From assembly GCA_964613985.1 (NCBI GenBank), contig CAZTJD010000002.1:3664-67663 (forward strand): a DNA stretch of 64,000 nt, written 5' to 3'. The notes under the pieces are model-generated. The model was given only the letters and a program-made list of their open reading frames with translations, was not told the origin of the DNA and did not search any database. How positions within the stretch are numbered: the stretch's first letter is position 1; the number at the start of each line of letters is the position of its first letter. Shown here one piece after another: positions 3,201 to 38,331 of the stretch. The DNA is from an uncultured Anaerolineales bacterium (GTDB lineage: Bacteria; Chloroflexota; Anaerolineae; Anaerolineales; UBA11858). The position numbers and the translations under genes were made by a program.

Positions 3201-3208
3201 AAGAAACC

Positions 3209-3658
3209 ATGAAAGATTCGCAAAAAAATAAGAGAAATATCCAGCGGCGATCTATTGTCGGAGTGTCTATTGCTATCTTCGGATTTATTCTCTTTATGAT
3301 GGGTATTTCTCCTGAATTATTCGCAATAGATCGTAGTCCAGTAGTAGGTTTTGTACAAATTACCGTGTTCTTGATTGGTTTAGCGATTATTTGCGTTGGA
3401 GGTTACCTTACTTTGATTTCAATGTGGAATAAGAAACCCAGGACCATTGCTGCTGATATTGGAGTGCGGTTGATTGCTACAGGTTACGTTGTAGCAGTGG
3501 CTTCAGGGATGGCTGATGTCTTCGGTTTTGGCAGCCAGCCTTGGCCTTATATTCCAAGTTTTGGGCATTGGCAGGCTCGTGGTGTTTTGATCGGAGAGAT
3601 CATTATTGCTATTGGTTTTTTGCTCTTATTACCACCTCGATCTTTCAAAAAGGAGTAG
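3209..3658 (+). CDS. hypothetical integral membrane protein
   Basis: Several hydrophobic segments. The ATG at 3209 is chosen over the overlapping upstream start in the track. Confidence 0.45.
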   Translation: MKDSQKNKRNIQRRSIVGVSIAIFGFILFMMGISPELFAIDRSPVVGFVQITVFLIGLAIICVGGYLTLISMWNKKPRTIAADIGVRLIATGYVVAVASGMADVFGFGSQPWPYIPSFGHWQARGVLIGEIIIAIGFLLLLPPRSFKKE

Positions 3659-3809
3659 GCTACAGTTTCGTAAGTGTTCAGTTAGCCTTTTAGCAAATCC
3701 TGGTTCGCACTGAGCCGGGATTTTACTTAATTTTTTAATTGATCTTGTTTAAAGTAAACCATTGGAATGTGATATAAAATACGCAAAAGATCAGATAACT
3801 GAGGACCGA

Positions 3810-5105
3810 ATGAGCAATAAAGTGACCCAACTTCGACTATCAAATGGCCTATGTGTCATGCTTAAAGAAATTCACACCGCTCCGATTATCAGCCATTGGA
3901 TTTGGTATCGGGTTGGCTCAAGGGATGAAATTCCTGGAATCACCGGCATATCCCATTGGGTGGAACATATGCAATTCAAAGGTACTGAAAAATTCCCTGC
4001 CGGCATCCTTGACAAAGCTGTCTCTCGTGATGGCGGGGTTTGGAATGCATTCACCTACTTGGATTGGACGACTTATTTTGAAACAATGCCGGCAACAAAG
4101 ATTGACCTTGGGCTCCAGTTGGAAGCAGACCGCATGGTAAACAGCCTGTTCAAGCCGGACGAAGTCTCCTCGGAACGAACTGTGATCATTTCTGAACGCC
4201 AGGGAAATGAAAATCAACCAATTTTCCGCCTTGGGGAGGCTTTACAGACGGCTGCATTCCGAGTACATCCTTACCACCACGAGATCATTGGGGATATGGC
4301 AGATTTGCGAACAATTTCACGGGATGACCTTTACCAGCATTACCAGACCTATTATTCTCCAAACAATGCCGTCCTGGTAGTAACGGGTGATTTCGATACA
4401 GCAACCATGAAAGAACGTATCGAATCCTTGTTTGAACCAATCGCCAGACGAAATGACATTACACGACAGATACGCCCAGAGACTCAGCAGAATGGTGAGC
4501 ACCGCCTGACTGTTGAAGGGCCTGGGGAGACCTGCTATATCCAGGATTGTTACCATGCCCCTTCCGCAATTGATCCTGATTTCTTCCCATTTGTGGTCCT
4601 AGACAGCCTCCTAACCGGTCCAAGCAGTCTTAATCTCTTTGGTGGCGGTATCTCTAATAAAACTTCGCGTATGTACCGAAGTCTGGTTGAAGGTGAGGTG
4701 GCTGTAGACGTTCAAGGTAGTCTTCCAGCGACCATCGATCCCTTCCTGTATATCATAACAATAACCGTCCATCCCGGACACAAACCTGAAGAAGCTGTCG
4801 CTATCCTGAATGACGAGATAAAACAAATCCAGGATGAAGCACCAAATAAAGAAGACCTACAACGAGCAGTAAAACAAGCGCGTGCCTTATTTGCTTACGG
4901 TAGTGAAAGCATCACCAACCAGGCTTTCTGGATTGGGTTTTCCGAGATGTTTGCTACTTATAACTGGTTCACATCCTATCTTGACAAATTGGAAGCGGTG
5001 ACTCCCGAGGACATACAGGCAGTAGCACAAAAATACCTGCGACCTCAGAACCGGGTCTTGGGTACATACCTTCCAACTGAAAATCAGTCTGAGGGGCGGC
5101 TATGA
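3810..5105 (+). CDS. M16 (pitrilysin/insulinase) family zinc peptidase, active-type subunit
   Basis: Inverted zinc motif HxxEH in GISHWVEHMQFKGT. GAGGA precedes the ATG at 3810. Confidence 0.85.
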   Translation: MSNKVTQLRLSNGLCVMLKEIHTAPIISHWIWYRVGSRDEIPGITGISHWVEHMQFKGTEKFPAGILDKAVSRDGGVWNAFTYLDWTTYFETMPATKIDLGLQLEADRMVNSLFKPDEVSSERTVIISERQGNENQPIFRLGEALQTAAFRVHPYHHEIIGDMADLRTISRDDLYQHYQTYYSPNNAVLVVTGDFDTATMKERIESLFEPIARRNDITRQIRPETQQNGEHRLTVEGPGETCYIQDCYHAPSAIDPDFFPFVVLDSLLTGPSSLNLFGGGISNKTSRMYRSLVEGEVAVDVQGSLPATIDPFLYIITITVHPGHKPEEAVAILNDEIKQIQDEAPNKEDLQRAVKQARALFAYGSESITNQAFWIGFSEMFATYNWFTSYLDKLEAVTPEDIQAVAQKYLRPQNRVLGTYLPTENQSEGRL

Positions 5106-6496
5106 AACACAAAACACCAAGCAATCCAACTTCAAAAACAGCCGCCCCTTCAGTCACCTCTCATCCAATCTTCAGGCAACCCAAAGAAAATATGCAGCAA
5201 CTATCCTTTAACAATCATTCATCGTCCATCCCTGGTCCTGACGATATTACCTACATCAAGCTAGATAATGGCATCACGATACTCACAAGGGCAAATTCTA
5301 ACAGCCCATCCGTCAGCATAAGCGGGTACCTGGCAACCGGGGCTTTATCCGACCCAGATGATAGACTTGGACTTGCAGATTATACAGCTTCCGCTCTAAT
5401 GCGAGGCACAACCAATCGAGATTTCTTGACCATTTATGATGAACTGGAATCGGTGGGGGCTTCTCTGGGATTTTCGGGCGCAACGCACACAACCGCATTT
5501 GGGGGAAAATCACTCGCAGAAGACCTGCCTCTGTTACTTGAGATACTGGCTGAAACCCTAATAAATCCCACTTTTCCCGGCCAACAGGTAATGCGATTAA
5601 GAGCCCAACTCCTCACCAACCTGGCAGTTCGCGCCCAGGATACGCACGAGATGGCCTCTCTGGCTTTTGACCAGATTATCTACCACGACCACCCTTACAG
5701 CCGCCCCGAAGATGGATACCCAGATACAATACAGAACATCTCACGCGAAGATCTGGTTTCTTTTCATGAAACCCATTATGGTCCTAGAGGTATGGTTATT
5801 TCCATTGTCGGTGCAGTTGACCCTCAAGTGGCAATCAGCCATGTTGAGAAAAACCTGGGAAAATGGCATAATCCCAAGCAGGTAGAACCACCCAAACTCC
5901 CTTCTGTTTCTCCCATCAAAGAAGTAGTAATTCAAAAAGTAGAGATTCCGGGGAAATCCCAGGCAGATATTGTCATGGGTGTTGTGGGTCCAGCCCGAAA
6001 ATCACCTGAGTATCTTGCAGCAATGTTGGGAAATAACATCCTTGGTCAATTCGGAATGATGGGACGGATTGGCGAGGTGGTTAGAGAGCAGGCGGGATTG
6101 GCTTATTATGCTTACAGCAGCGTAAGTGGAGGCCTTGGGCCGGGTCCATGGTCAGTACAGGCAGGAGTAAACCCTGAAAATATTAATCATGCAGTCGACT
6201 TAATCCGAAAAGAAATCCACCGCTTCAGGACAGAGCCAGTCTTTTCCGAAGAATTAAGTGATAGTAAATCTAATTTCATTGGTAGAATGCCCCTTACCCT
6301 GGAGACCAATTCGGGTGTATCGGGTGCCTTGCTTAATATTGAGCGGTACGATCTGGGTTTGGATTATTATCAGAGGTTTAGTGATTTAGTAAACGCAGTT
6401 ACAATAGAAGATGTGTTAAGAACTGCGGCGGAATACTTTAAACCGGATACTCTGGCAGTAGGAATCGCTGGATCTGGAATCCATACAAACGCTTAG
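5102..6496 (+). CDS. M16 family peptidase, non-catalytic-type subunit (no HxxEH)
   Basis: Has the M16 fold pattern but lacks HxxEH. Its ATGA start/stop overlaps the upstream M16 gene, which suggests a heterodimer pair. Confidence 0.8.
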   Translation: MKHKTPSNPTSKTAAPSVTSHPIFRQPKENMQQLSFNNHSSSIPGPDDITYIKLDNGITILTRANSNSPSVSISGYLATGALSDPDDRLGLADYTASALMRGTTNRDFLTIYDELESVGASLGFSGATHTTAFGGKSLAEDLPLLLEILAETLINPTFPGQQVMRLRAQLLTNLAVRAQDTHEMASLAFDQIIYHDHPYSRPEDGYPDTIQNISREDLVSFHETHYGPRGMVISIVGAVDPQVAISHVEKNLGKWHNPKQVEPPKLPSVSPIKEVVIQKVEIPGKSQADIVMGVVGPARKSPEYLAAMLGNNILGQFGMMGRIGEVVREQAGLAYYAYSSVSGGLGPGPWSVQAGVNPENINHAVDLIRKEIHRFRTEPVFSEELSDSKSNFIGRMPLTLETNSGVSGALLNIERYDLGLDYYQRFSDLVNAVTIEDVLRTAAEYFKPDTLAVGIAGSGIHTNA

Positions 6497-6544
6497 GTTG
6501 TTATATTAAAAAGGCATTTTGATGAGTCGTAAAACCCAGGATAG

Positions 6545-6919
6545 ATGGATATGAACATTACAACAGGGGTAGATTTGATCGAATTAATCCGAATCGAAGG
6601 GGCACTACAGAAACATGGGAAACAATTTTTGGAACGTATCTACACAAAGAAAGAGTTATCCCTTTTCAAGGAAAGTCTTGAATCCCTGGCTGTCCGGTTT
6701 GCAGCAAAAGAAGCTGTTAGCAAGGCACTTGGAAGTGGCATGGGGGTAATAAACTGGCAGGAAATCGAAATTCTACGTGACGATATGGATGCACCTGTAT
6801 TATACCTGCATGGAAGAGCCCAGCAACGCGCTGCCCTGCTTGGTTTTAAAAACTGGTCCGTTAGCCTGAGTCATACAGATCAATATGCACTTGCATTTGT
6901 AGTAGCGGTTGGTGAATAA
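6545..6919 (+). CDS. acpS: holo-[acyl-carrier-protein] synthase
   Basis: About 124 aa, with GVDLIELIRI...RFAAKEAVSKALG...SLSHT, typical of AcpS. Confidence 0.85.
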   Translation: MDMNITTGVDLIELIRIEGALQKHGKQFLERIYTKKELSLFKESLESLAVRFAAKEAVSKALGSGMGVINWQEIEILRDDMDAPVLYLHGRAQQRAALLGFKNWSVSLSHTDQYALAFVVAVGE

Positions 6920-7086
6920 AGTAATAAAGAAAGAAACTCAAAACATAACTTACACAGGTCTTTCGTGTTTTATGATAAGAACTGATATTTACAAAAATCA
7001 ATCAGAACTGAAAAAACGCCCAAATACCTAGTTCTAGCAATTTTTTAGAGCTCCCCTGGATTTTTAGAAAAATAGGAGGTATAGAT

Positions 7087-9612
7087 ATGTTAAAGAATAT
7101 TACTCGCTTAATAATCGGACTCCTGCTATTCGTAATCATCATTATCCTTTTCACGGCGATATTTGGTCCGGTTTGGACACATAAGACGGCTGAATATTCA
7201 TTTCCGCAAATCGATGGAGAGATCAAGCTGGCTGGCTTGGATGGGCCCGTGGAAATCTATCGAGATTCGATGGGGGTACCGCACATCTATGCCATGACAC
7301 AACATGATTTATTCTTCGCCCAGGGGTATGTCCACGCCCAAGATCGTTTCTGGCAGATGGATTTCTGGCGACACCAGGGAGCTGGTCGCTTGTCAGAACT
7401 TTTGGGTAAAAATTTGCTCGAAACCGATCGATTCCTGCGCACGATTGGGTGGGAGCGTGTTGCCCAGGAGGAATTACTGCTCCTGGATGCCGAATCACAG
7501 GCGATATTAGATTCTTATGCAGAAGGCGTCAACGCTTACCTGGAAGAAAATACTGGTAAAGCGTTAGCCCTGGAATACGCTTTTCTACCGATCCTTAACC
7601 GTGGTTACCAGCCAAAACCCTGGACAGCATTAAACACCATGACCTGGGCAAAAGCTATGGCGTGGGACCTTGGCGGCAATATGGATACCGAAATCAATCG
7701 AGCGCTGTTGTTCAAAATATTGAGTCTTGAACAGGTAGAACAATTATATCCGCCTTATCCTGATGACCGTCCTGTGATCGTAAACCATCCCCAGATCACA
7801 AAAGAAATAATGCCAATATCGCACTTTAACTCCGCTTTAATAGGCTCCATCCTGCCGGGGTTGGTTGAAGTCCAGGAAAAATTTTCTGGCATCGATATTA
7901 TAGCGGGGGGCAGCTCGGACGGGATCGGCTCCAATAGTTGGGTCATCTCTGGTGATTTGACAGATACTGGTATGCCGTACCTTGCCAACGATCCCCACCT
8001 TGGAGCTCAAATCCCTTCGATCTGGTATGAGGTGGGATTACACTGCATAACAAAAGGACCTGATTGCCAGGTGAATGTCACAGGGTTCTCATTTGCTGGT
8101 GCACCCGGGATCATCATTGGACATAACGATCGTATTGCCTGGGGATTCACCAATGTTGGTCCGGATGTGATGGACCTATACATTGAGAAAATCAATCCTG
8201 AGAACCCGAACCAATACGAGTTCCAAGGGAGCTGGGTGGATATGGAAATTATCACTGAAGAAATTCGGATAGCTGGTGGTGATCCCGTCCAACAAACGGT
8301 CCATCTGACTCGTCATGGTCCAATCATTACAGAGGTCTACGGGTTGGAGAATTTTGCACAAGAATCCAGCCTTGACTTACCAGAAAACTACGCAATTGCA
8401 CTCCGGTGGACCGCCCTGGAACCCTCCTGTATCTTCTGCGCAGTCTGGAAATTTGACAAGGCAAACAATTGGGAAGAATTCAGAGTCGCAGCTTCCCTGT
8501 TTGCTGTGCCCGCTCAAAACCTGGTCTTCGCAGATATTGAAGGCAATATAGGATATCAGACCCCAGGAAATATTCCCATCCGGACAGAAAGGCATGATGG
8601 CATGCTGCCGGTACCCGGTTGGACGGGAGAATACGAGTGGCTGGGTTATATCCCCTTTGAAGAACTGCCTTATACCTTCAACCCCATCGAGGGATATATT
8701 GTTACTGCAAACAATGCGGTGGTCGGGACTGAATACCCATACAGCATTTCTCGGCAATGGTCTTACGGTCAACGTGCCCAGGCAATCGTGGACATGGTGG
8801 AAAACACTCCTGGTCCTATCACCATCGACACCATCAAGGAAATGCAAGGGGATAATAGGATCCTGATTGCTGAAGACCTGCTTCCAGTGCTGATGAATAT
8901 CTCATTGGATGAAGAAACCCTGCAGGATGCTCGCAGCATCTTCACCGGATGGGACCACCAGATGGATATCGACTCTGCCCCAGGCACCTTGTTTGCTGTA
9001 TTTTGGAAGCACCTGCTATCTGCCACCTTTGAGGATGACTTACCGGAATCTCAATGGCCTAGTGGTGGGGATGACTGGATGGAGATCGTCCGACAGTTGA
9101 TCAATGAACCAGTCTCACCCTGGTGGGACAATCAGACTACAGTTGTGGTCGAATCTAGAGATGATATCTTCCACCAAGCTTTTAAGAGTGCGGTTTCAGA
9201 AATCCAAAAACTTCAAGGTAGAGACCCCGACGGTTGGACCTGGGGTGATTTGCATACCATCACCTTTGAGAATGCCGTGATGAGTAGCTTCCCAATCATC
9301 AAAAACGTTTTCAATCGAGGTCCCTTCCCCACCGCGGGAGGTAGCGCAATAGTGAATGCGACGGGATGGAGTACACTCCAGGGTTACCAGGTAAACCATG
9401 TCCCTTCCATGAGAATGATTGTTGACCTCAGCAACCTAAGTAACTCGTTGACCATGCACACCACCGGTCAATCTGGACATCCCTACCACCCTCATTATAT
9501 CGATATGGCAGACCCCTGGCGATTGATCCAATATTTCCCCATGTATTGGGAACGCAATGAAATCGAAACAAACGAAAGTGGTCATTTATCCCTGGTTCCT
9601 TTAGCCGAATAA
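7087..9612 (+). CDS. penicillin acylase (Ntn-hydrolase) family protein with N-terminal membrane anchor
   Basis: AGGAGG RBS, an N-terminal TM helix, a GSNSWVISG nucleophile-Ser context and a size of 841 aa. Confidence 0.85.
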   Translation: MLKNITRLIIGLLLFVIIIILFTAIFGPVWTHKTAEYSFPQIDGEIKLAGLDGPVEIYRDSMGVPHIYAMTQHDLFFAQGYVHAQDRFWQMDFWRHQGAGRLSELLGKNLLETDRFLRTIGWERVAQEELLLLDAESQAILDSYAEGVNAYLEENTGKALALEYAFLPILNRGYQPKPWTALNTMTWAKAMAWDLGGNMDTEINRALLFKILSLEQVEQLYPPYPDDRPVIVNHPQITKEIMPISHFNSALIGSILPGLVEVQEKFSGIDIIAGGSSDGIGSNSWVISGDLTDTGMPYLANDPHLGAQIPSIWYEVGLHCITKGPDCQVNVTGFSFAGAPGIIIGHNDRIAWGFTNVGPDVMDLYIEKINPENPNQYEFQGSWVDMEIITEEIRIAGGDPVQQTVHLTRHGPIITEVYGLENFAQESSLDLPENYAIALRWTALEPSCIFCAVWKFDKANNWEEFRVAASLFAVPAQNLVFADIEGNIGYQTPGNIPIRTERHDGMLPVPGWTGEYEWLGYIPFEELPYTFNPIEGYIVTANNAVVGTEYPYSISRQWSYGQRAQAIVDMVENTPGPITIDTIKEMQGDNRILIAEDLLPVLMNISLDEETLQDARSIFTGWDHQMDIDSAPGTLFAVFWKHLLSATFEDDLPESQWPSGGDDWMEIVRQLINEPVSPWWDNQTTVVVESRDDIFHQAFKSAVSEIQKLQGRDPDGWTWGDLHTITFENAVMSSFPIIKNVFNRGPFPTAGGSAIVNATGWSTLQGYQVNHVPSMRMIVDLSNLSNSLTMHTTGQSGHPYHPHYIDMADPWRLIQYFPMYWERNEIETNESGHLSLVPLAE

Positions 9613-18378: not shown

Positions 18379-19617
18379 ATGCTCCACATTGAACCGGATT
18401 TTATGGATCTGACGGTCGATCTTGACCCCCATACTTTCTGGAAAGAAAACCTGATTTGTACTAAATTAACCACCAAGAAGCCTCGCTGCGGTCTTCATTT
18501 CTCCCCCGATGACCACTGGCTATTCGAATTCATGGCGATCCCCTCCACTCTGCGCTACTACAATGAAAAAGCCTATCGCGATAGTTTACACCCCCAGGTT
18601 AACAAGATCACCGAAGAATACATTGGTTGCTCTTTTTTTGAGGAAGACACCTGGGAACACAACCCGAAACGGATTGAGAATCTGTTCGGCTGTAATTTTG
18701 AATACCACGATGGGCGTAAGCCCTGGCTCATACCGGTGACCACGGATCCGAAGGCGTTTTCTCGAATTTTAGACCGTGCCGAAAGCATAAACATGCAAAC
18801 CTGGGCTCTTCCAGTGCCATTCCTCAGGGAATGGGATGCTCGAAAGGATGCGGGAAAAGAGGTTCCCTTCTTGGGTACTGGTAGCCGCGGTCCGGTAACC
18901 ATCATGACCTCTGTACTGAATGCGGAAAAGATCTTCTTTTGGTATTATGACCATCCTGCGCTGATGAGACGTTTTTGAGATATCCTGGCTGAAAAAATGG
19001 TCGAGCTCAATACCATCCTACGAGTCTTCAGCGGTAATACCCAACCTGGGTGGTGGGTCACGGACGATAACTGCGCCTTGTTTAACCGAAAGCTATACCA
19101 GGAATATTGCGTGCCAGTTTTAGAGAAAGTACTTGATGCCATGGCACCTGGAGATGCTCCTCGCTATCAGCACTCCGATAGCGCCATGGGGCAACTGCTG
19201 GAAGACCAGTACGCTTTAGGAATTCGTGAAGTCAACTTTGGTCCAGAAGTCGCGGTTGCCTTGATTCGAGAGAAGATGCCAGACGCCATGATTCACGGTC
19301 ATGTACCCCCGTTTCTACTGCTTAATGGCGCTCCAGAAAAAATCAAGACCTGCATACTCGACAACTTTCGCGATGCGGGTCAAACTGGCGGCCTGGAGAT
19401 CACAACTGCTGGTTCCCTGGGCTGCCGGGACACAGGCGTCGGTCGTATGCGCTGGATGATGCAGGTTGTCCAGAAGCACTGCCGATATGAAGGAGCAACC
19501 CCCATGCCCAGAGATCAGGTAGATTCGCACCTGTTGGATCTGGACAGTCCCAATGTATTTCTATGCCACGACTGCCTGGATCGGTCTATCACAGAGGACA
19601 TGATTGCCTTCTTTTAA
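18379..19617 (+). CDS. uroporphyrinogen decarboxylase (URO-D) family protein, interrupted by an in-frame TGA at 18976-18978 (pseudogene or recoded gene)
   Basis: ORFs 18379..18978 and 18997..19617 share a frame and are separated by a single TGA. The joined sequence reads ...YYDHPALMRRF*DILAEKMVELN... with a URO-D/MtaA-like C-terminal half. Confidence 0.55.
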
Positions 19618-22757: not shown

Positions 22758-22815
22758 ATAAATTCCTTTGTCCACGGATTATAATACTTTTTGATATAAA
22801 TGGTTGGAGGTACTA

Positions 22816-23229
22816 ATGCCCACATATGATTATCGATGTCTTAACTGCCGTAAGCGTTTTGAGTTGTTCTTGTCTTATGAAGAATATGGCACCCAAGAGG
22901 TTCATTGTCCTCATTGCGATAGCATAAAAGTGCAACGCAAAATCGGTCGCATCCGTATTGCCAAGTCGGAAGACAGCCGCATAGACGATCTGGCTTCGGA
23001 TTTTAGCGATCCATCAGCCCTGTCAGGGTTGGAAGATGATCCCAAAGCATTAGGACGTTTGATGCGCAAGATGAGCAATGAGATGGGGGAAGAAATGGGA
23101 CCAGAATTTGATGAGGTGGTCGATCGTCTGGAAAAAGGTCAAAGCCCCGAAGAAATCGAAGAAGCCTTGCCTGACCTGGGAGGCGATAGCAGCCCAGGTG
23201 GCAGACTTGGAGATCTAGATGATTTCTGA
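22816..23229 (+). CDS. FmdB family zinc-ribbon protein with acidic tail
   Basis: MPTYDYRCLNC...CPHC zinc ribbon. GGAGG RBS upstream. Confidence 0.75.
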   Translation: MPTYDYRCLNCRKRFELFLSYEEYGTQEVHCPHCDSIKVQRKIGRIRIAKSEDSRIDDLASDFSDPSALSGLEDDPKALGRLMRKMSNEMGEEMGPEFDEVVDRLEKGQSPEEIEEALPDLGGDSSPGGRLGDLDDF

Positions 23230-23890: not shown

Positions 23891-23897
23891 CTATCTG

Positions 23898-23968
<71 letters not shown>

Positions 23969-24049
23969 AAAAAAAATTACTGATCGTATCATGAAGATTG
24001 CCGATAACGATCAATCCACAACCTACAATCTACAATCAGCAATCTCTTG

Positions 24050-24121
24050 AGCGGGCGACGGGATTCGAACCCGTGGCCTTCTGCTTGGCAAGCAGACGTT
24101 ATACCACTTAACTACGCCCGC
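24050..24121 (-). tRNA. tRNA-Gly(GCC)
   Basis: Acceptor GCGGGCG/CGCCCGC, anticodon stem-loop TCTGC-TTGCCAA-GCAGA, T-loop TTCGAAT. Confidence 0.9.
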
Positions 24122-24141
24122 AAATCGGTCAAACCCGATAG

Positions 24142-24214
24142 TGCCGAGAGCCAGAATCGAACTGGCGACACCGCAATTTTCAGTCGCGTGCTCTACCAAC
24201 TGAGCTATCTCGGC
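24142..24214 (-). tRNA. tRNA-Phe(GAA)
   Basis: Acceptor GCCGAGA/TCTCGGC, D-arm GCTCAGTTGGTAGAGC, anticodon loop CTGAAAA, T-loop TTCGATT. Confidence 0.9.
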
Positions 24215-24360: not shown

Positions 24361-25653
24361 ATGTTAATTCTTGCAAACCTCTGGCAAACAACAAAAAAAA
24401 TCGCCTGTTTGGTATTCATCGTCCTGGCTGGCGTTATCTTATTACAACGTAGTGATGTCAAAATTGAGAACCAGCTAGAGAAAATAAGGTCCTTTACCAG
24501 GCAGATCGAGTTCGATTTCGTAACCTGGACTTTTGATGCCCTTGGAATCAAGTTGCAGCAAATGAGTCTGGGCACAGCGAATTATCTGCCTCAAGAAGAA
24601 CTTTCCAAGTTCGTCCTTGACTATCTGGCGCTCAATAACCAGATCCAACAGGTAGAGACTCAGATTTACGATATATACTCAAATCCAGTAATATCAGATC
24701 CCAAATCATCATCTACCCTTCTTCGGAAACAACTCCAAGATCTAAACATCCAAAGAGAGGCGCTTGCCCCGTTGGCTGAGTCGATTTTACAGGACCAGGT
24801 GAGCGAAATAATATCTGACCTTGGATTGACAATCCTTGGACAGTCAGTTCCTCCTGTTTTGTACCACATCAGTGCAGTGCCACGTGGGCTTGTGGTTTCC
24901 CCTAGAAATGTCATCCGTCAAGATGCCAATATCGCTATCGATCCCGAAATCACTATCGCAGGCATGGAAGCGCTTGAAAATGAGGTGGAAGAATCACTTG
25001 ACGTATCATCATTGGTCGTTGGCTTAGGAGGAATAGGATTGTATCCAACGATGGTCATGGAGACAAGCAATATTAATTGGTTAGCAGAGGTTGTATCCCA
25101 CGAGTGGGTGCACAATTTCCTAACCCTCAGACCACTCGGAGCGAGTTATAGCACCAGTCCTGAATTAAGGATAATCAATGAAACTGTTGCGAATCTTTCC
25201 GAAAAAGAGATCGGCGGGGCTGTGATCGAACAATTTTATCCAGGCTTTGTACCTCTGCCACCAACGCCTTCAACAGAAAACAGCGAAGAAAACGACCTTC
25301 CTCCAAAAACCCCTTCTTTTGATTTCAGATCAGAGATGCACGAAACCCGCTTGATGACTGATGAGCTCCTGTTGAAAGGAAGAATTAAAGAGGCAGAAGC
25401 TTATATGGAAGCACAACGACAGATGTTCTGGGAACATGGTTATCATATACGCAAGTTAAACCAGGCATACTTTGCCTTTTATGGTGCTTACGCAGACGAA
25501 CCAGGCGGCCACGCTGGAGCAACAGAAGATCCTATTGGTGATGCAGTGCGTAGACTTCGCGCCCAGAGTTCATCCCTCGCCGTCTTTCTTAACCGTATAT
25601 CCTGGATGTGGTCACTTGACCAGCTTATGAACGCAGTGGAAGCAGGAGAATAA
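24361..25653 (+). CDS. membrane-anchored hypothetical protein with HExxH zinc-metallopeptidase motif
   Basis: N-terminal TM helix and EVVSHEWVHNF (HExxH). I recognised no further family. Confidence 0.55.
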   Translation: MLILANLWQTTKKIACLVFIVLAGVILLQRSDVKIENQLEKIRSFTRQIEFDFVTWTFDALGIKLQQMSLGTANYLPQEELSKFVLDYLALNNQIQQVETQIYDIYSNPVISDPKSSSTLLRKQLQDLNIQREALAPLAESILQDQVSEIISDLGLTILGQSVPPVLYHISAVPRGLVVSPRNVIRQDANIAIDPEITIAGMEALENEVEESLDVSSLVVGLGGIGLYPTMVMETSNINWLAEVVSHEWVHNFLTLRPLGASYSTSPELRIINETVANLSEKEIGGAVIEQFYPGFVPLPPTPSTENSEENDLPPKTPSFDFRSEMHETRLMTDELLLKGRIKEAEAYMEAQRQMFWEHGYHIRKLNQAYFAFYGAYADEPGGHAGATEDPIGDAVRRLRAQSSSLAVFLNRISWMWSLDQLMNAVEAGE

Positions 25654-25747
25654 GGTTATTAGGAGGATCTTTAAGCAGAAATTGTGCAATGATAATAAAC
25701 TCTAATCCTGGTAAAATGAGCGGATATTGGCCAAATTTGGAGCAAAA

Positions 25748-27061
25748 ATGAGAAAAGGTTTATTCATCTTATCAGTATTGATCAGTCTCCTATCGAATGC
25801 CTGCAGCGGAATCCATGGGTATACGCCTAGGGTAACCACGAATACTCCATCAAGCACAGTCGTTGGAACAACAGTAACAGAACTTGCCGGACCCAGCCCA
25901 AATCAAGGGCCAGAAAGTGGAGCTGGTTCTGCGGTTCAGCCAATAAATGGTTTGATGAGTGAATGTACTCTGGTCAGCTCATCCACCAAGCAATCTTCAG
26001 GCCAGGCAAATATTTTTTTAATTTCTGAAGATGATTGGACTCTTGGACCAGATGATGCTGCAGTAACCATAATTGAGTACGGAGATTTCCAGTGACCATA
26101 CTGTGCCCAATCTGCTTCCGTGCTGAAGCAGCTCAAGAATCAGTTCCCGGATGATCTTCGAATTGTTTACCGCTATTTCCCTTTAGCCAGTATCCACGAT
26201 AAGGCTTTGTTAGCCTCTCAGGCCGCAGAAGCGGCGGGGCTACAGGACATGTTTTGGGAAATGCACGACTTTCTTTTTGAAAACCAAAAGGTTTGGTCCT
26301 CACTTACTGAGGACGAGTTCGAAACCTGGCTAGTGAACACGGCTGCCTACAGGATCCACCTGGACACTGAAAAGTTTGCAGTAGATTTAAAAAGCGAGGG
26401 AATCGTTTCGTATGTCCAGAAAACCTGGGAATATGGACAGTCCCTCGGCCTCCCGGGAACCCCTTTTTTTGTTCTTAACGGTTCCCCCTATAACGGACCT
26501 TTAGATGAATACAGCATCCAATCCATCATCCAGTTACAGGCATTGGAAGAAATCCAATACAGCGAATGCCCACCGGTCGTAATTGACCCACTTAAAAATT
26601 ATATTGCCACCATCCGGACAGAGAAAGGTGATATCGTAGTACAGTTATTCCCAGATATTGCCCCTCTGGCGGTCAATAGCTTTGTATTCCTGGCAAAAAA
26701 TGGCTGGTTTGATGGGGTAATATTCCACCGAGTACTCCCTGGATTTGTAGCCCAGGCAGGGGATCCAACTGGTACTGGCTTAGGTGGGCCAGGTTATGCC
26801 TTCAAAAATGAAACGACTCCCGATCTTGTCTTTGACCGGGAGGGCTTACTTGCCATGGCAAATGCCGGTCCGGATTCTAATGGCAGCCAGTTCTTTATCA
26901 CCTTGGGACCAGCCGAACATCTTAATGGAGCCTATACCATATTCGGTGAAGTCATTGAAGGAATGAAAGTTGTTAAAAATCTGACAGCACGAGATCCATC
27001 CCAGGGTTCTAATCTGCCACCCGGGGACATGATCATCACAATCACGATCGAAGAGAAATAA
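25748..27061 (+). CDS. predicted selenoprotein: DsbA-like thiol:disulfide oxidoreductase (UxxC) fused to cyclophilin-type peptidyl-prolyl isomerase, lipoprotein
   Basis: GGAG RBS and lipobox LLSNAC. An in-frame TGA at 26093-26095 gives IIEYGDFQ-U-PYCAQ, with a downstream hairpin. The DsbA-like body follows (FWEMHDFLFENQ, GTPFFVLNG), then cyclophilin motifs (FHRVLPGFVAQAGDP, NGSQFFIT). Confidence 0.8.
26112..26131 (+). promoter_or_regulatory. candidate bacterial SECIS hairpin
   Basis: CUGCUUC-CGUGCU-GAAGCAG is a perfect 7-bp stem. It starts 16 nt after the UGA, and the loop contains GU. Confidence 0.6.
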
Positions 27062-27131
27062 CCTACCCGAAAATCCAAGCTTCCCATATGAGATTCGCGG
27101 ATCATCCAAGGGTGCCAAAGAACCATAAGAT

Positions 27132-28502
27132 ATGATGCAGCAATCGTCAGTAAAAATGCCCCAAAACAAACCAAATCAGAAAGAACAATCTGTCCGTTGG
27201 CTTTCTATCTGGCAGCTTCTCCTCAGTCTTTTTGGTATATTGGTCTTTTGGGGCTTAGCCTTCACGTTGTTGCTGATGATATTACAGTCGACCATCAATG
27301 CACCAGGGTTGATGAGTGATTCAATCGCTCTGCTGCTGATGGTTGCAGGGTTCGCGTTTATAGGGGTTTTGATGATCCCTTCTGCGGTACTTTCCTCGCT
27401 CAGTTTATTTAATAAACCGGTGCAGGGCACATTCCGAATCCCCCGGCCTGCCTCCCTTTTTTTTCTCTTCACTGTGTTACTGGGTTTGGGATACCTGGCA
27501 GCGAAACAATCAAACATTGTTTGGGTCGTCCTTCCACCAATCCATGTAATTGCGATTGGGATCGCCATCCTATGGATGATCAAACTAGGGACTCGCGGCT
27601 TGCCGACAGGGTCAGCTCAACGCCAGTGGGGAATATTCAACCTGGGGTTGGTAGCCGCGCCTGTGCTTAGCCTGTTAATTGAATTTGTAGTAATTATTAT
27701 TGTCGGTTTTATGGGCATCGCCTACCTAGGACGTGAACCGGGTTTCTCTGCTGAGCTTTCCCAACTCTATCAGGGCTACCTGGCGAACCCGAATCTTTCT
27801 TTGGATACAATTATCACGACCCTGGAACCTTACCTAATGCAGCCTGTGGTAATTTATGTCGGATTGGTTGTTATCGCCTTGCTGGTACCGTTGATTGAGG
27901 AGACGATAAAACCTATTGGAGTATGGCTGCTTGCTGGACGCAAGCCCACACCAGCACATGGTTTTGCAGCCGGTGTGTTAAGTGGCGGAGGGTTTGCCTT
28001 GTTTGAAAACTTGACCCTTTCCGCAACTTCAGGGGAGGATTGGGCTCTGGTTGTTGCCTCCCGTATTGGAACAAGTATCATTCACATCATCACCACAGGA
28101 CTCACCGGTTGGGCTCTTGCCTCTGCATGGAGTCAGAAAAAATATCTTCGCCTTGGTGCATCCTTCCTCGCCGCTGTTGCTATCCATGCTTTGTGGAATG
28201 GACTTGTCATCCTTTCGATCGTGCCGGAATTTTTCCCTGGACTGAACAACTATCCAGATATTTTAGAGAATATCGGCCTTGCTTCTCCCCTCGGTTATCT
28301 ATTACTCTTGGTAGGTAGCTTCATTCTACTCTTCCGAGGCAATTATTCACTCAGAAATGCTATAATTCCGCCCGTTGTGGAACCAGAAATCTGGAAATCT
28401 CAGGATCCAGAAAATCACTTCTCAAAGCAAACCATTAAACCAATCCCGCCCAGGCTAGAGGAAGAAAGTGAAAGCACTACTGCGGTGGGAGAGGAAAAAT
28501 AG
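27132..28502 (+). CDS. PrsW-like intramembrane metalloprotease family protein
   Basis: Polytopic protein with an EETIKP motif, FALFEN and a HIITTGLTG His motif, as in PrsW-type proteases. Confidence 0.6.
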   Translation: MMQQSSVKMPQNKPNQKEQSVRWLSIWQLLLSLFGILVFWGLAFTLLLMILQSTINAPGLMSDSIALLLMVAGFAFIGVLMIPSAVLSSLSLFNKPVQGTFRIPRPASLFFLFTVLLGLGYLAAKQSNIVWVVLPPIHVIAIGIAILWMIKLGTRGLPTGSAQRQWGIFNLGLVAAPVLSLLIEFVVIIIVGFMGIAYLGREPGFSAELSQLYQGYLANPNLSLDTIITTLEPYLMQPVVIYVGLVVIALLVPLIEETIKPIGVWLLAGRKPTPAHGFAAGVLSGGGFALFENLTLSATSGEDWALVVASRIGTSIIHIITTGLTGWALASAWSQKKYLRLGASFLAAVAIHALWNGLVILSIVPEFFPGLNNYPDILENIGLASPLGYLLLLVGSFILLFRGNYSLRNAIIPPVVEPEIWKSQDPENHFSKQTIKPIPPRLEEESESTTAVGEEK

Positions 28503-28515
28503 GATTAACTAGAAA

Positions 28516-29172
28516 ATGGAAATCATCACCTATATTATTGAATTCGTCCTTCACCTGGATGAGCATCTGGCAACAATCATCGCCAATTATGGGACCTGGA
28601 CGTACGCAATTCTTTTCTTTGTAATTTTTATAGAAACTGGTTTTGTGGTCACCCCTTTCTTACCAGGTGATTCGCTTTTATTTGCAGCAGGTAGTTTTGC
28701 TGCCCTCGGCTCACTCGATCCCTGGGTAATTTTCGGGCTTATGGGATTTGCGGCTATCCTCGGGGATACGGTCAACTACTCGATCGGTAGCTATATTGGT
28801 GAACGTGCCTTCAGCGGTAATATCCGCTGGCTGAAGAAAGAGTACCTTGACCGCACTGAAGCATTTTACGAAAAACATGGCGGCAAGACGATCATTCTAG
28901 CCCGTTTCGTACCGATCATCCGTACATTTGCACCTTTTGTCGCCGGGGTCGGCTCGATGACTTATGGACATTTTATCGCCTACAATTTCATCGGAGGAAT
29001 CTCCTGGGTAGCGATATTCACCTTCTTGGGTTACTTTTTCGGGAACCTTCCCTTCGTAAAGAGGAATTTTGAACTGGTAATCTTCGCCATTATCTTCATC
29101 TCCCTGCTGCCACCGTTGTTTGAATATTTCAAAGCCCGCAAAGAAACCAAGATAAAAAACATAAAAGCATAA
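28516..29172 (+). CDS. DedA family membrane protein
   Basis: The [16 protein letters not shown] motif and a size of about 218 aa are typical of DedA/SNARE-associated proteins. Confidence 0.85.
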
Positions 29173-29175
29173 AAA

Positions 29176-29204
29176 AATCGGTATCAAGTTGATACCGATT
29201 TTTC
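29176..29204. terminator. bidirectional rho-independent terminator
   Basis: A 10-bp stem ATCGGTATCA/TGATACCGAT with a 3-nt loop. It is flanked by an A run upstream and TTTT downstream, between convergent genes. Confidence 0.8.
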
Positions 29205-29256
29205 ATTGATTCAAAAGAGGGATCGTTCCAATGAAATATCACCAATAGATACCGAT

Positions 29257-29619
29257 TTAACAGGTAATATGGAACAACCCAATGGTTCCATCTCCTGCCA
29301 GGTTCCAGGCATCAAGCGCTTCTGGTGTGGGTAAAACATCCACTTGACAATGTCGCCCTTTGAAGAACTCGGCAGCATCTTCGGAAAGGTTTAACATACC
29401 ATATTGTCCTGCACCCAGGATCAAGGTACCAGCTCCCTCTTCATATACATATTCTGCTTCCTCCAGAGAAATAGTGTGCGAGGTGCCGTAAATTACCTTG
29501 GATAATTTCTTCTTCCGTTTTTCCACATCCCCGTTCAGGTGAATAAGGACATCATGAGCATAGGTCTTCCCGTCAATAGTGATCGAGCCAAATTTTGTAC
29601 TTTCGATTCTAGGTTTCAT
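29257..29619 (-). CDS. Mth938-like (DUF498) domain protein
   Basis: FGSITIDGKTYAHDVLI...DVLPTPEA pattern. GGAG RBS before the ATG at 29619. Confidence 0.6.
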   Translation of the reverse strand: MKPRIESTKFGSITIDGKTYAHDVLIHLNGDVEKRKKKLSKVIYGTSHTISLEEAEYVYEEGAGTLILGAGQYGMLNLSEDAAEFFKGRHCQVDVLPTPEALDAWNLAGDGTIGLFHITC

Positions 29620-29908
29620 GGCAAGTCTCCATTTTAAACAATCGCAAGGAGAAACCAACCTGATTCTCCCTTAAGTATAACTTAACGTAGCACGTTTTTC
29701 ACTCTGGCATAGCTTCCTGGCCATCATCCCGGATGGCGATGTTTTTATGTAAAAAGGAAATGATTCATCACAGTTGTGAAGGAATCTGTTAAATTACCTT
29801 AGACGATCGGTGATTGTCTTCATTGGGCTGTTTTGAGATAACCTCATAGACACTATCAAAAAACAACTTCGTTTTCCATCCATATATTGACAATTATATG
29901 ACAAATTA

Positions 29909-29937
29909 TTGACAATAAGGGCAAATCGGTTTATAAT
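29909..29937 (+). promoter_or_regulatory. consensus sigma70 promoter TTGACA-17-TATAAT
   Basis: TTGACA at 29909-29914, a 17-nt spacer and TATAAT at 29932-29937, about 70 nt upstream of the 30008 start. Confidence 0.7.
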
Positions 29938-30007
29938 AATCAAATATAGCTGTCTATGAATCCAAAAGTAAATTCACAAGCAAGTTTATAACAATCTGGA
30001 GAAACTT

Positions 30008-30454
30008 GTGGAAATATTTGAATACGAATTTCTAGTAAATGCCTCATTGGAAAAGGTACGGATTTTCCACTATGATAGCAGCGTCCTCAAGAAGCTTAAC
30101 CCACCTCCTTTTTTTGTCCAGGTGCACCACTTCGATCCTATGGGCGAAGGTTCTATCTCCGACTTCACCCTGTGGATGGGACCATTACCAGTCCACTGGC
30201 GCGCTGTCCATAGTCAAGTAAGTGATCAAGGCTTCACGGACAATCAGGAAAGTGGACCAATGGCGCTTTGGCGACACACCCATCGTTTTGAGGCAATAAA
30301 CAACCATACCACCCTGATTCGTGAGCATATTGAATACAACCATTTTCCCGGTTGGCGCGGTCTGCTTACCAGGCTACTCTTTAGCCCCTTGCCCCTCCGA
30401 GTCTTATTCACCTACCGCAAATGGGCTACCCGACGAGAACTTAGGACTGGTTAA
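30008..30454 (+). CDS. SRPBCC (START/cyclase-like) superfamily protein
   Basis: GTG start after GGAG. About 148 aa with an LWRHTHRF pattern seen in SRPBCC ligand-binding proteins. Confidence 0.55.
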   Translation: MEIFEYEFLVNASLEKVRIFHYDSSVLKKLNPPPFFVQVHHFDPMGEGSISDFTLWMGPLPVHWRAVHSQVSDQGFTDNQESGPMALWRHTHRFEAINNHTTLIREHIEYNHFPGWRGLLTRLLFSPLPLRVLFTYRKWATRRELRTG

Positions 30455-30652
30455 CTTGAACAACCGGTGATCTGAAACTTTTGTGTTTCACTGGCTAGAA
30501 TACCGACAATTCTGGAATTCAAGCCTAAGGGTTATTAAAATAAAATTGGTTGGCAACATTGAACTGCCATTAATCATTTTTCCACATAAATCTGCCTTGA
30601 TCAGCGTCAGATAATATTTGAAGGTCGCAGCTAAGAACAGGAGAATACAACA

Positions 30653-31138
30653 ATCACTAAAGTACAACTGGACACCCCAGCCCCTGATTTTACTCTTGAA
30701 GATTTCAACGGCCAAAAGGTGACACTATCCGATTTTAAAGGTCAGAAGCAGGTCTTGCTGGTCTTCAACCGCGGTTTCGTCTGACCGTTCTGCCGCCGGC
30801 ACATGGCGCAGTTGCGCCAGGATCATGACAAGTTTAAGGAAGTTGGGGCTGAGATCCTGGTCGTAGGCCCGGAAGATAGCGACACTTTTAAAAAATACTT
30901 CCATGAGAACGACCTACCGTTTTACGGTCTCCCCGACCCAAAACACAGCGTATTGAAGCTTTACGGTCAGGAGATCAAGTTATTTAAATTCGGCCGTATG
31001 CCGGCGATGGTCATCATCGACAAAGCGAGCATGGTACGTTTCGTGCACTACGGTCACGCCATGTCCGACATCCCTGAGAACGCAGAGGTGTTAGCCACCC
31101 TGGAAGCCCTACAGGGTGAAAGGGAAGATAGACAATAA
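30653..31138 (+). CDS. predicted selenoprotein: peroxiredoxin-like (AhpC/TSA/redoxin) protein with UxxC motif
   Basis: The frame is open from 30635. The translation is ...TPAPDFTLEDFNGQKVTLSDFKGQKQVLLVFNRGFV-U-PFCRRHMAQL..., with TGA at 30782-30784 on the redox Cys position and a GC hairpin 19 nt downstream. The 5' end is uncertain because there is no ATG/GTG/TTG upstream of the conserved N-terminus. ATC at 30653 lies 9 nt after AGGAG. Confidence 0.75.
30804..30819 (+). promoter_or_regulatory. candidate bacterial SECIS hairpin
   Basis: UGGCGC-AGUU-GCGCCA is a 6-bp GC-rich stem. The apical loop contains GU and begins 25 nt after the UGA. Confidence 0.55.
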
Positions 31139-31542
31139 GAAAAGGTTCCCCCACCCTTTCACATTTTTCCTTACTTCTTTTTATTCAATCCTTCTTCCTT
31201 CAGTAAGCTTCGGATAGACTCCAGCAGCAAAGGGTATAAGTTCAGCCTTTGGCATCAGTTGACCCCCATTAGCGCCAGCGGTTCGGGCTGCCTCCAAAGC
31301 CATAAAGCTGGATAAAACCTGTTGATTTTTTTTTACCTACAGACTAAGGAAATAAACGACTCGTAGCTGAGATTTCGGGATGAAAACCTCGGAAACGCTA
31401 ATACGAAACCGCCATTCGAAGATCGGACCCTGTTACGATGAAACGAATTCATCAATCTTGTTTAATACATAACGAGAATCAAATAAAAAATTTTGGGGAA
31501 TTTGCTTCCGCAATTTACAGTATTCCCAAAAAAATTTTTGCT

Positions 31543-36915: not shown

Positions 36916-38331
36916 ATGACCCCTGCGATCTGGTGGATTCGGCGTGATCTACGATTACTGGACAATCCGGCTTTACAAGCTAGCCTGGAAAGCGCTTCAA
37001 GTATCATCCCGGTCTTTATATTAGACCCAATCCTCATTGAATCCCCTAAAATCTCCAGGTCAAGGCTTTCTTTCCTTTATGGAGGGCTGGAACAGCTACA
37101 AGCAGACCTCTCTTCATGTGGCAGCCGTCTGATCATCCGGAAGGGAATTCCGACATTTGTTTTGAATGAGCTCTTTCAGGAAAGTGGTGCTATTGGGATC
37201 TTTGCCGAAGCAGATTACACCCCTTACGCCCAAAAACGCGATAAAGAGGTGGGTGCCAAACTCCCGCTGGTATTGACAGGAGGTTCAAGCTTCAGCCACC
37301 CAGAGGTAGTTATGAAAGCAAATGGAACCCCCTATACCGTATTTACGCCCTTTATGCGCTCATGGAAAGGCATTCACCATCCAACTGCTGCCAATTTAAT
37401 CCATAGACCGAAAGAGATTCCTACCCCAATGGATATCATCAGCGATCCGATACCGAAGCTATCTCCATCGGAGGAAAGCCAAACAAGCTTTCCCCCGGGA
37501 GAAGCGATCGCACAGCAGCGGCTGAAACTGTTCACCACCGGGGAGGGAGCACCAATCTACCAGTACACAGACTTGCGGAACTGTATGGATCTGGAGGGCA
37601 CCTCCCAACTCTCCCCTTACCTTCATTTCGGGATGATCTCGGTTAGAGCTGCGTTCATGGCAGCAAACAAAGCCATATCCCAAGCATCAGATGACCAATC
37701 TCGCCTTGGTGCTGAGACCTGGTTAAATGAGTTAATTTGGAGGGAATTTTACATCTCAATTCTGTATCATTTTCCTCATGTTCTCAGGCAAAGCTTCAGA
37801 CCAGATTACAGGCGAATTCCATGGTTAAATAACCAAGACGAATTCCTTACCTGGTGTCGGGGGAATACAGGCTATCCGATTGTCGACGCAGCCATGCACC
37901 AACTGGCAAAGACGGGCTGGATGCACAACCGGGCACGGATGATTACTGCATCTTTCTTAGTCAAAGACTTGCTGATTGATTGGCGCTGGGGAGAGCGTTG
38001 GTTTCTGCAGAACCTTGTCGATGGAGATTCAGCAGCTAACAATGGTGGCTGGCAGTGGACAGCAGGAACTGGAACGGACGCTGCGCCTTATTTTCGAATC
38101 TTCAATCCCATCCTGCAGGGGAAGAAATATGATCCAGATGGTGTTTACATCCGCAGGTGGCTTCCTGCATTGACTAATGTCCCCAATAAGTATATCCATA
38201 CCCCCTGGGAGATGCCGGAAGGTTTCCAAAGCAAATCTAACTGTATAATTGGTAAGCATTATCCACCCCCCATTATAGACCATGCTTTCGCCAGGCAGCG
38301 CGCTTTAGAGGCATTCAAAGCTGTCAAATAA
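36916..38331 (+). CDS. phr: deoxyribodipyrimidine photolyase / cryptochrome family protein
   Basis: WWIRRDLRLLDN N-terminus. C-terminal FAD-binding motifs WREFY, GWMHNRARM and DGDSAANNGGWQW. Confidence 0.9.
   Translation: MTPAIWWIRRDLRLLDNPALQASLESASSIIPVFILDPILIESPKISRSRLSFLYGGLEQLQADLSSCGSRLIIRKGIPTFVLNELFQESGAIGIFAEADYTPYAQKRDKEVGAKLPLVLTGGSSFSHPEVVMKANGTPYTVFTPFMRSWKGIHHPTAANLIHRPKEIPTPMDIISDPIPKLSPSEESQTSFPPGEAIAQQRLKLFTTGEGAPIYQYTDLRNCMDLEGTSQLSPYLHFGMISVRAAFMAANKAISQASDDQSRLGAETWLNELIWREFYISILYHFPHVLRQSFRPDYRRIPWLNNQDEFLTWCRGNTGYPIVDAAMHQLAKTGWMHNRARMITASFLVKDLLIDWRWGERWFLQNLVDGDSAANNGGWQWTAGTGTDAAPYFRIFNPILQGKKYDPDGVYIRRWLPALTNVPNKYIHTPWEMPEGFQSKSNCIIGKHYPPPIIDHAFARQRALEAFKAVK

Follow-up and report, generated by a model that had tools for sequence, protein, structure and literature searches.

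Two neighbouring in-frame UGA genes in an Anaerolineales genome: a DsbA-cyclophilin lipoprotein within a conserved envelope gene cluster and a probably independent Prx-like gene

Are two genes with in-frame UGA codons, lying about 4.7 kb apart on one strand, parts of a single selenium-dependent system? The question is raised by a 64-kb stretch of DNA (the window, in whose positions all coordinates are given unless a related locus is named) from an uncultured Anaerolineales bacterium (contig CAZTJD010000002.1, positions 3,664 to 67,663), which encodes a DsbA-cyclophilin lipoprotein and a peroxiredoxin-like (Prx-like) protein, both with UGA in place of a catalytic Cys codon. A preliminary description of this DNA had suggested for the two genes a coordinated envelope oxidative-folding function dependent on selenium availability. 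Its placement of the genes and of the in-frame UGA codons was borne out by open reading frame (ORF) listing with translation and by Pfam and NCBIfam searches, and the spacing of the two genes was likewise confirmed, with a TGA-to-TGA distance of 4,689 bases. As detailed below, both codons are, on sequence grounds, convincing selenocysteine (Sec) codons, and the locus most probably consists of two independent units, an envelope cluster and a separate cytoplasmic gene pair, the proximity of the two Sec genes being incidental.

The DsbA-cyclophilin gene (25748-27061, + strand) has its likely start at ATG 25748, the mechanically called ORF beginning at TTG 25727. The deduced protein possesses a lipoprotein-type N-terminus (MRKGLFILSVLISLLSNAC), a DsbA-type domain (Thioredoxin_4, PF13462, 73.1 bits with a cut-off of 23.2; DSBA, PF01323, 53.1 bits with a cut-off of 25.6) and a cyclophilin-type peptidyl-prolyl isomerase (PPIase) domain (Pfam Pro_isomerase, 146 bits). 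The UGA codon (26093-26095, +) occupies the first position of the CxxC motif (EYGDFQ-U-PYC), and in full-length homologues the position of the TGA is taken by the Cys of EYSDFQ-C-PxC, which is the exposed nucleophilic Cys of DsbA-type enzymes. Similarity detected by tblastn continues uninterrupted on both sides of the codon. Among the 120 best database matches, 66 are fragments of 305-316 amino acids called just past the TGA codon, while 44 are full length and retain the motif, with Cys in 43 of them and Ser in one. For comparison at the DNA level and of gene order, 20 related loci carrying the fusion (designated by L numbers; genes identical in L081 and L082, and in L084 and L085) were aligned with the window by tblastn. 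The active-site codon is TGA in L002, L003, L014, L081-L085, L095 and L096 and TGT or TGC in L001, L004, L006, L008, L009, L010 and L013, with Ser or Arg at this position in L005, L007 and L012. Lipobox-type N-termini are found in every Sec orthologue and in the Cys homologues.

A hairpin resembling a selenocysteine insertion sequence (SECIS) lies at 26112-26131 (+), starting 19 nucleotides (nt) past the U of the UGA and consisting of a 7-bp stem with a CGUGCU loop. Comparison of nine Sec sequences (the window and eight relatives) revealed pairing in 98.4% of the cells around a CGUGNU loop, with four covarying pairs and 12 double-change cells; the covariation score was reached by none of 500 shuffles, and controls with slid partners attained at most 54% pairing. 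A comparable hairpin is absent from six of the seven Cys orthologues. Where the SECIS would be expected, the Cys-form orthologue of L010 (C-A-S-C) nevertheless folds a stable hairpin (6086-6133, -10.9 kcal/mol), which would be consistent with a recent conversion from Sec to Cys. Two other peculiarities of the Cys content of this family may be mentioned. In the orthologues of L005 (10142-10396), L007 (3399-3656) and L012 (10283-10540) the first Cys of CxxC is replaced by Ser or Arg and a Cys is gained four residues upstream (Y-C-D-F-Q-S-x-x-C), so that the redox pair may have shifted position. In addition, two extra Cys residues are conserved, one in the linker before the DsbA domain (S-E-C-T-L-V-S-S) and the other (C281, E-C-P-P) between the DsbA and cyclophilin domains, and these may form a structural disulfide.

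The Prx-like gene (30653-31138, +) encodes a protein with the AhpC/TSA fold (AhpC-TSA, PF00578, 89.3 bits with a cut-off of 26; Redoxin, 67.2 bits) and the motif UxxC, not TxxU; its best NCBIfam match, "SelL-related redox protein", scores below the cut-off of that model. The UGA (30782-30784, +) again occupies the first position of the motif (GFV-U-PFC), and L089, L092, L097, L098, L099 and L100 likewise have TGA there. Approximately 105 of the 120 best matches are Sec forms, with few true Cys forms (GFACPFC). The SECIS-like hairpin of this gene, UGGCGC-AGUU-GCGCCA (30804-30819, +), starts 22 nt past the U of the UGA and belongs to a stretch of 25 nt (ATGGCGCAGTTGCGCCA.GA) that is invariant, synonymous sites included, in five orthologous loci; because of this invariance covariation is uninformative here. 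Many Prx-like database calls (P0121-P0183) carry Trp at the Sec position, and in the one case checked (L100, 180-668) the codon is TGA and the Trp is the product of a gene caller using a code in which TGA specifies Trp. As for the beginning of the gene, no ATG, GTG or TTG is present between the in-frame stop at 30632-34 and GTG 30710, and in the alignment ATC 30653 coincides with the ATG at which the orthologues start and is preceded by AGGAG 9 nt upstream, which suggests the use of a non-canonical ATC start.

Could both TGAs nevertheless be true stops, left by pseudogenisation or by gene splitting, with neither gene encoding a selenoprotein? Some observations fit such a view: machinery for Sec insertion was not found in the window, the energies of the single hairpin sequences are no better than those of shuffled ones (z = -0.7 and +0.2), and another gene of the window, similar to URO-D, is likewise broken by a TGA that has no hairpin. 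The Rfam scan at the gathering threshold retrieved tRNAs only and matched neither hairpin. The single-sequence energies are not significant; the SECIS evidence rests on covariation and on the contrast between TGA and TGY forms. Against true stops, in both of these distinct families the TGA coincides precisely with the catalytic Cys, it is conserved in 9 distinct DsbA sequences from 11 related loci and in six Prx loci (51-81% identity), the protein similarity extending to either side of it, the DsbA hairpin covaries and tracks TGA versus TGY, and both families have been catalogued as selenoproteins with UxxC (PMC1088965; PMC13188914). Taken together, termination at these codons appears extremely improbable, and we infer that selenium is actually incorporated at both of them. 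Reassignment of TGA (code 4 or 25) was also considered and rejected: TGA serves as the ordinary stop of 10 of the 49 window genes, and the recoding is therefore site-specific and does not reflect an altered genetic code. The URO-D-like gene itself (18379-19617, +) is split by an in-frame TGA at 18976-18978 into halves that match Pfam URO-D at 80-178 and 204-314. It was rejected as a third selenoprotein gene, having neither a downstream hairpin (z = +1.35) nor a Cys-type or redox motif, and is probably a pseudogene or the result of a sequencing error.

With Sec accepted as the probable reading of both codons, the next issue is the genomic setting of each gene. The DsbA-cyclophilin gene is the second of four consecutive genes on the + strand, preceded by a gene for a 430-residue protein with an HExxH motif (24361-25653) and followed by genes for a polytopic intramembrane protease of the PrsW family (27132-28502) and for a DedA-family membrane protein with a VTT domain (28516-29172), the latter beginning 13 nt past the PrsW stop. 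Conservation of this order across related genomes had been proposed as a check, and it was indeed found to be conserved in Anaerolineales while the flanks change. The HExxH gene lies directly upstream of the fusion gene in 14 of the 20 related loci, the PrsW gene lies directly downstream in 14, and DedA is located at the cluster end in 11. In particular, the full order HExxH - DsbA/PPIase - PrsW - DedA is present in L002, L004, L081, L083, L095 and L096; HExxH - DsbA/PPIase - PrsW in L001 and L005; HExxH - DsbA/PPIase - DedA in L003, L084 and L085; DsbA/PPIase - PrsW - DedA in L014; and DsbA/PPIase - PrsW alone in L006, L008, L009, L011 and L012, with a partial cluster also in L007. The order is kept in Anaerolineales relatives down to approximately 43-50% protein identity, with identities falling to 43-53% for the HExxH protein and to 29-40% for PrsW. 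The Rhomboid/Gmk/Zn-ribbon/RNase H block found upstream in the window is kept only in L081 and L083; L084 has PadR/HAAS/MFS genes instead, and none of the flanking genes of the window was found in 10 kb of upstream sequence of L001, L004 and L005. The cluster genes of the relatives are tightly spaced or overlapping, as seen for PrsW and DedA in L083 and L096 and for the HExxH and DsbA N-terminal ORFs in L096, and the terminator scan revealed no credible + strand terminator between the four genes of the window.

This pattern is, as far as gene order can tell, that expected of an operon under selection, and the four envelope genes are probably co-transcribed. The order might instead merely reflect shared ancestry, with the four genes acting independently of each other. 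The loci do all belong to a single order-level group (Anaerolineales and related Chloroflexota), and the cluster is not always complete, PrsW being missing in L003 and L084, DedA in L001 and L005, and HExxH in L006 and L008-L014. We nevertheless consider mere ancestry unlikely: the block persists where its flanks have been replaced, as in L001, L004 and L005 (without Rhomboid/Gmk/RNaseH) and in L084 (with PadR/HAAS/MFS), and it persists at an HExxH protein identity of only 43-53%; its genes share one strand and overlap or are tightly spaced, and all four products are located at or outside the membrane.

Further observations concern the surroundings of this cluster. Between the RNase H and HExxH genes of the window, a cluster of tRNA-Cys, tRNA-Gly and tRNA-Phe genes (23897-24214, - strand) is preceded by a near-consensus promoter (24275-24247). 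The zinc-ribbon protein encoded at 22804-23229 (+) is of the FmdB type (CxxC...CxxC) and is a Cys form in the window; the FmdB-type family is listed among predicted UxxU selenoproteins (PMC13188914). Genes for an M19 peptidase, two M16 peptidases, ACPS and penicillin amidase are located upstream of the cluster in the window (2115-9612, +), and downstream of DedA on the opposite strand in L081 (13764-20942) and in L083, an arrangement pointing to an inverted or rearranged segment whose breakpoint lies where the envelope cluster ends. Finally, in the cultured Ornatilinea apprima (L011, 9011-11792) three tandem frames related to DsbA and/or cyclophilin precede PrsW, which suggests a local duplication of foldase genes.

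The Cys, Ser and Sec forms described above occur in one and the same syntenic setting. The preliminary description had proposed a test of whether Sec and Cys forms alternate, and Sec (TGA), Cys (TGY) and Ser forms were all found among syntenic orthologues. Because orthologues with Cys or Ser occupy the same gene context, Sec is optional and the envelope cluster is not selenium-requiring. Sec would thus represent a catalytic upgrade that can be exchanged for Cys or Ser, and the cluster is not defined by it.

Export and membrane location were assigned from a Kyte-Doolittle hydrophobicity scan and from reading of the N-termini. The HExxH protein has a single hydrophobic segment (residues 10-28), forming one N-terminal transmembrane helix preceded by basic residues, and carries the motif HEWVH. 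An alignment of 23 sequences showed that H247, E248, H251, N252, N273, E274 and T275 are invariant in the family (HEWxHN followed by a downstream NET). The protein has no match to Pfam, NCBIfam, the PDB or peptidase families, and belongs to a family of 1,443 clusters at 50% identity without any annotation; its motif spacing resembles that of gluzincins and suggests an outward-facing zinc protease. PrsW (PF13367, 61.6 bits with a cut-off of 23.5) has approximately eight hydrophobic segments and is similar by this match to the site-1 protease of the sigma-W pathway, differing in that no anti-sigma or sigma factor gene is adjacent here. DedA (VTT_dom, PF09335, 74.7 bits) matches NCBIfam model NF008102 (282.8 bits with a cut-off of 236), in common with DedA-family proteins (YqjA/YghB, UptA), although the UptA equivalog models score far below their cut-off (52 versus 300). 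In contrast to these products, the Prx-like protein has no signal peptide or membrane segment, and no hydrophobic segment was detected by the scan in the Prx-like protein, in the 148-residue protein encoded upstream of it or in the DUF498 protein encoded downstream of DedA. Accordingly, the five envelope genes counted in the preliminary description are reduced to four (HExxH, DsbA-PPIase, PrsW and DedA), and the Prx-like gene has to be removed from the list.

The Prx-like gene is also set apart by its predicted transcription. Directly after the DedA stop there is a palindromic terminator-like hairpin (29172-29204) with a 15-pair stem flanked by A- and T-runs; the T-run is on the - strand and TTTTC follows on the + strand. 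It is a predicted terminator of the convergent DUF498 gene (Mth938 family; 29257-29658, -; PF04430, 47.7 bits with a cut-off of 33) and probably also of the + strand cluster. Of the relatives, only the two closest, L095 and L096, have kept DUF498 behind DedA. Beyond it, a sigma-70-type consensus promoter (TTGACA-17-TATAAT, 29909-29937, +), which with 12 of 12 matches is the best of the region, lies 70 nt upstream of the gene for the 148-residue protein (30008-30454, +). This promoter sits within repeated ATTGACAAT / ATATGACAAAT motifs (29885-29940), which may be the operator of a regulator. A second terminator-like hairpin (31139-31160) directly follows the Prx-like stop, before the convergent dnaE. 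Thus, a predicted terminator hairpin, a convergent gene and a full consensus promoter separate the Prx-like gene from DedA, and a single transcription unit including it is not supported. The 148-residue protein is predicted to be cytoplasmic and its family is unconfirmed: the earlier label SRPBCC found no support from Pfam, NCBIfam or PDB sequence matches, even with E up to 10, its only link being a tblastn similarity of 28-29% to a gene located nearby in relatives, which itself matches Polyketide_cyc2 weakly. Orthologues of this protein, 59-65% identical, are encoded in the Prx/photolyase clusters of L089, L090, L092 and L093.

Comparison of gene neighbourhoods led to the same separation. The Prx-like and 148-residue protein genes are missing throughout the 20 related DsbA loci, even from L095, the closest; in L095 and L096 (DsbA 74 and 66% identical, respectively) DedA is followed by convergent DUF498 and then by MFS transporter or sulfatase genes. 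Conversely, Sec-Prx-like orthologues, 69-75% identical, occur in four independent contexts (L089-91, L092/93, L097 and L098/99), and the DsbA-cluster genes are absent from all four. In L089-91, L092/93 and L098/99 the Prx-like gene is followed by a photolyase gene overlapping its stop, and these loci also carry an orthologue or paralogue of the 148-residue protein gene together with Rieske/VanA_C, SDR/DUF2867, DUF1295 and DegV genes. In L097 an epimerase/SDR gene and a gene for a pyrimidine-dimer glycosylase (Pyr_excise) come after the Prx-like gene instead. The window itself encodes a DNA photolyase with Pfam matches (36916-38331, +), 55% identical in tblastn to those located beside the Sec-Prx-like gene of the relatives (L089, L091, L092, L093), which is displaced by 5.8 kb from the Prx-like gene, with dnaE (-) and an Ldh/Mdh gene between them. 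The Prx-like gene thus does not belong to a neighbourhood conserved with the envelope genes. Because it is absent from the DsbA loci and has ultraviolet (UV)-repair contexts of its own, the proximity of the two Sec genes in the window appears incidental, the outcome of a lineage-specific rearrangement. Their closeness is also not clearly beyond chance: if a genome of an assumed ~4 Mb held 10 selenoprotein genes, approximately 0.1 pairs of them would be expected within 4.7 kb of each other, and if it held 20, approximately 0.45.

These data bear directly on the possibility of one coordinated envelope oxidative-folding module that includes both selenoproteins and depends on selenium supply. Both are thiol oxidoreductases with UxxC, their genes share a strand and are separated by 4.7 kb, four genes nearby do encode envelope proteins, and selenoprotein genes do sometimes form operons, such as grdA-grdB, prdB-prdC, frhA-frhD-hdrA and a Prx-like gene with an AhpD-like one (PMC13188914). 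The window pair resembles these operons in that two Sec genes are close on one strand, and differs from them in being neither conserved nor part of one predicted transcription unit; for these two reasons it does not qualify as a selenoprotein operon, and only adjacency supports a shared pathway. The absence of the Prx-like gene from every related DsbA locus, the photolyase/UV-repair contexts of its orthologues, the lack of a signal peptide in its product, the intervening terminator, convergent gene and promoter, and the occurrence of Cys and Ser DsbA forms in the same cluster, which shows that selenium is not needed, all speak against such a module, and we regard it as very improbable. The coordinated selenium-dependent function of the two selenoproteins put forward earlier is therefore not retained, its synteny not being conserved, its transcription units being predicted to be independent and its Prx-like member having no export signal. 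Within the envelope cluster, selenium dependence is confined to the DsbA-PPIase.

Several points nevertheless weigh against the division into two units, or against parts of it. The promoter scan returned 22 sites versus 12.6 expected in shuffled sequence, and promoters and terminators alike were called solely by their match to a consensus, so that transcription may continue from DedA into the genes beyond it. The envelope might in principle also receive electrons from a cytoplasmic Prx-like reductant, by way of a membrane carrier whose gene lies elsewhere. The loci underlying the synteny comparison are few and come from metagenome contigs: 20 DsbA loci, two identical pairs among them, and four independent Prx contexts. 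Furthermore, an alignment scan of the genome collection with DsbA-PPIase gave mostly generic cyclophilin matches, with the fusion in 14 of the 80 loci listed and no close relative among the matches listed, and the close relatives were fetched individually. As regards the individual components, selA, selB, selD and tRNA-Sec were not found within the 64-kb window. No relative with an established function could be detected for the HExxH protein, its structure model is moderate (predicted local distance difference test, pLDDT, 72) with a poor domain-only model, and a Foldseek search of the model against the PDB yielded nothing with E < 0.4.

On the two-unit reading, which we still judge to be the probable one, Unit 1 (24361-29172, +) would be a conserved Anaerolineales cluster for envelope protein maturation and quality control. 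Its central product, as judged from domains and lipobox, would be a lipoprotein foldase tethered at the outer face of the cytoplasmic membrane, catalysing both of the slow steps in the folding of exported proteins, thiol:disulfide exchange (U/C-x-x-C) and prolyl isomerisation. The DsbA nucleophile would be Sec, inserted at UGA 26093 by means of the hairpin 19 nt downstream, and a selenolate at this position should speed exchange reactions. The HExxH protein would act as an outward-facing, membrane-anchored partner resembling a zinc protease, a presumed activity, while PrsW and DedA would contribute an intramembrane protease and a membrane-homeostasis protein, respectively. Unit 2 (29909-31160, +) would comprise the cytoplasmic 148-residue and Prx-like proteins under their own consensus promoter. 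In the lineage of the window, the photolyase/UV and oxidative-stress cluster of the relatives would have been broken up, with its 148-residue/Prx-like part moved beside Unit 1 and the photolyase displaced by 5.8 kb. Overall, we infer a foldase role for the DsbA-PPIase and a stress role for the Prx-like protein.

In the monoderm Bacillus subtilis, two separate extracytoplasmic foldases cover comparable functions, PrsA being a PPIase lipoprotein and BdbD a DsbA-like oxidoreductase. The DsbA-PPIase, to judge from its domains and lipobox, would be similar to them as a membrane-tethered folding catalyst providing PPIase and oxidoreductase activity outside the membrane, and differs in having both activities on one polypeptide, a cyclophilin instead of a parvulin, Sec for Cys, and no DsbB, VKOR or CcdA partner encoded in the window. 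A bolder proposal, advanced here only tentatively and less probable than not, is that of a dedicated Anaerolineales operon for extracytoplasmic maturation and quality control, built on an undescribed family of membrane-anchored metalloproteases, in which repeated switching of the nucleophile between Cys, Ser and Sec tunes disulfide exchange to low-oxygen habitats and the Sec form might work without a classical DsbB or VKOR.

Both selenoprotein families are already known. DsbA-like (UxxC) and Prx-like (UxxC instead of TxxU) selenoproteins were predicted in the Sargasso Sea selenoproteome (PMC1088965) and both are listed in a 2026 review (PMC13188914). The window DsbA shares with DsbA-like form 1 (PF01323, UxxC) the fold, Sec as the first residue of CxxC, a short SECIS hairpin with G in the loop and widespread Cys homologues; it differs by its cyclophilin fusion, its lipoprotein signal and its HExxH/PrsW/DedA cluster, although the catalogued representative, NIP15863.1, may share the fusion. 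It would represent a new domain and operon variant of a known family. The Prx-like protein, in turn, agrees with the described Prx-like selenoproteins (PF00578, UxxC) in that most of its close relatives are Sec forms, and differs by its photolyase/UV-repair linkage and by the apparent ATC start of the window copy. The literature searched, of incomplete coverage and hence giving absence of evidence only, contained no mention of the DsbA-cyclophilin fusion, the HExxH cluster, the Prx-photolyase linkage or Anaerolineae selenoproteomes.

As the two-selenoprotein envelope module is not upheld, there is no new kind of selenoprotein operon to record here. The analysis does reveal that the Sec-DsbA/cyclophilin lipoprotein is widespread in Anaerolineales, yet systematically truncated by gene callers (C-terminal fragments make up 66 of its 120 best matches), and that the relatives of the Prx-like protein are systematically misannotated, being either truncated or given Trp at the Sec codon. 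For the unannotated HExxH family, its position beside an envelope foldase and an intramembrane protease provides a concrete functional lead. Finally, the orthologues, which share their gene context but differ in having Sec, Cys or Ser at a single catalytic position, constitute a natural series bearing on why Sec replaces Cys in an exported oxidoreductase.

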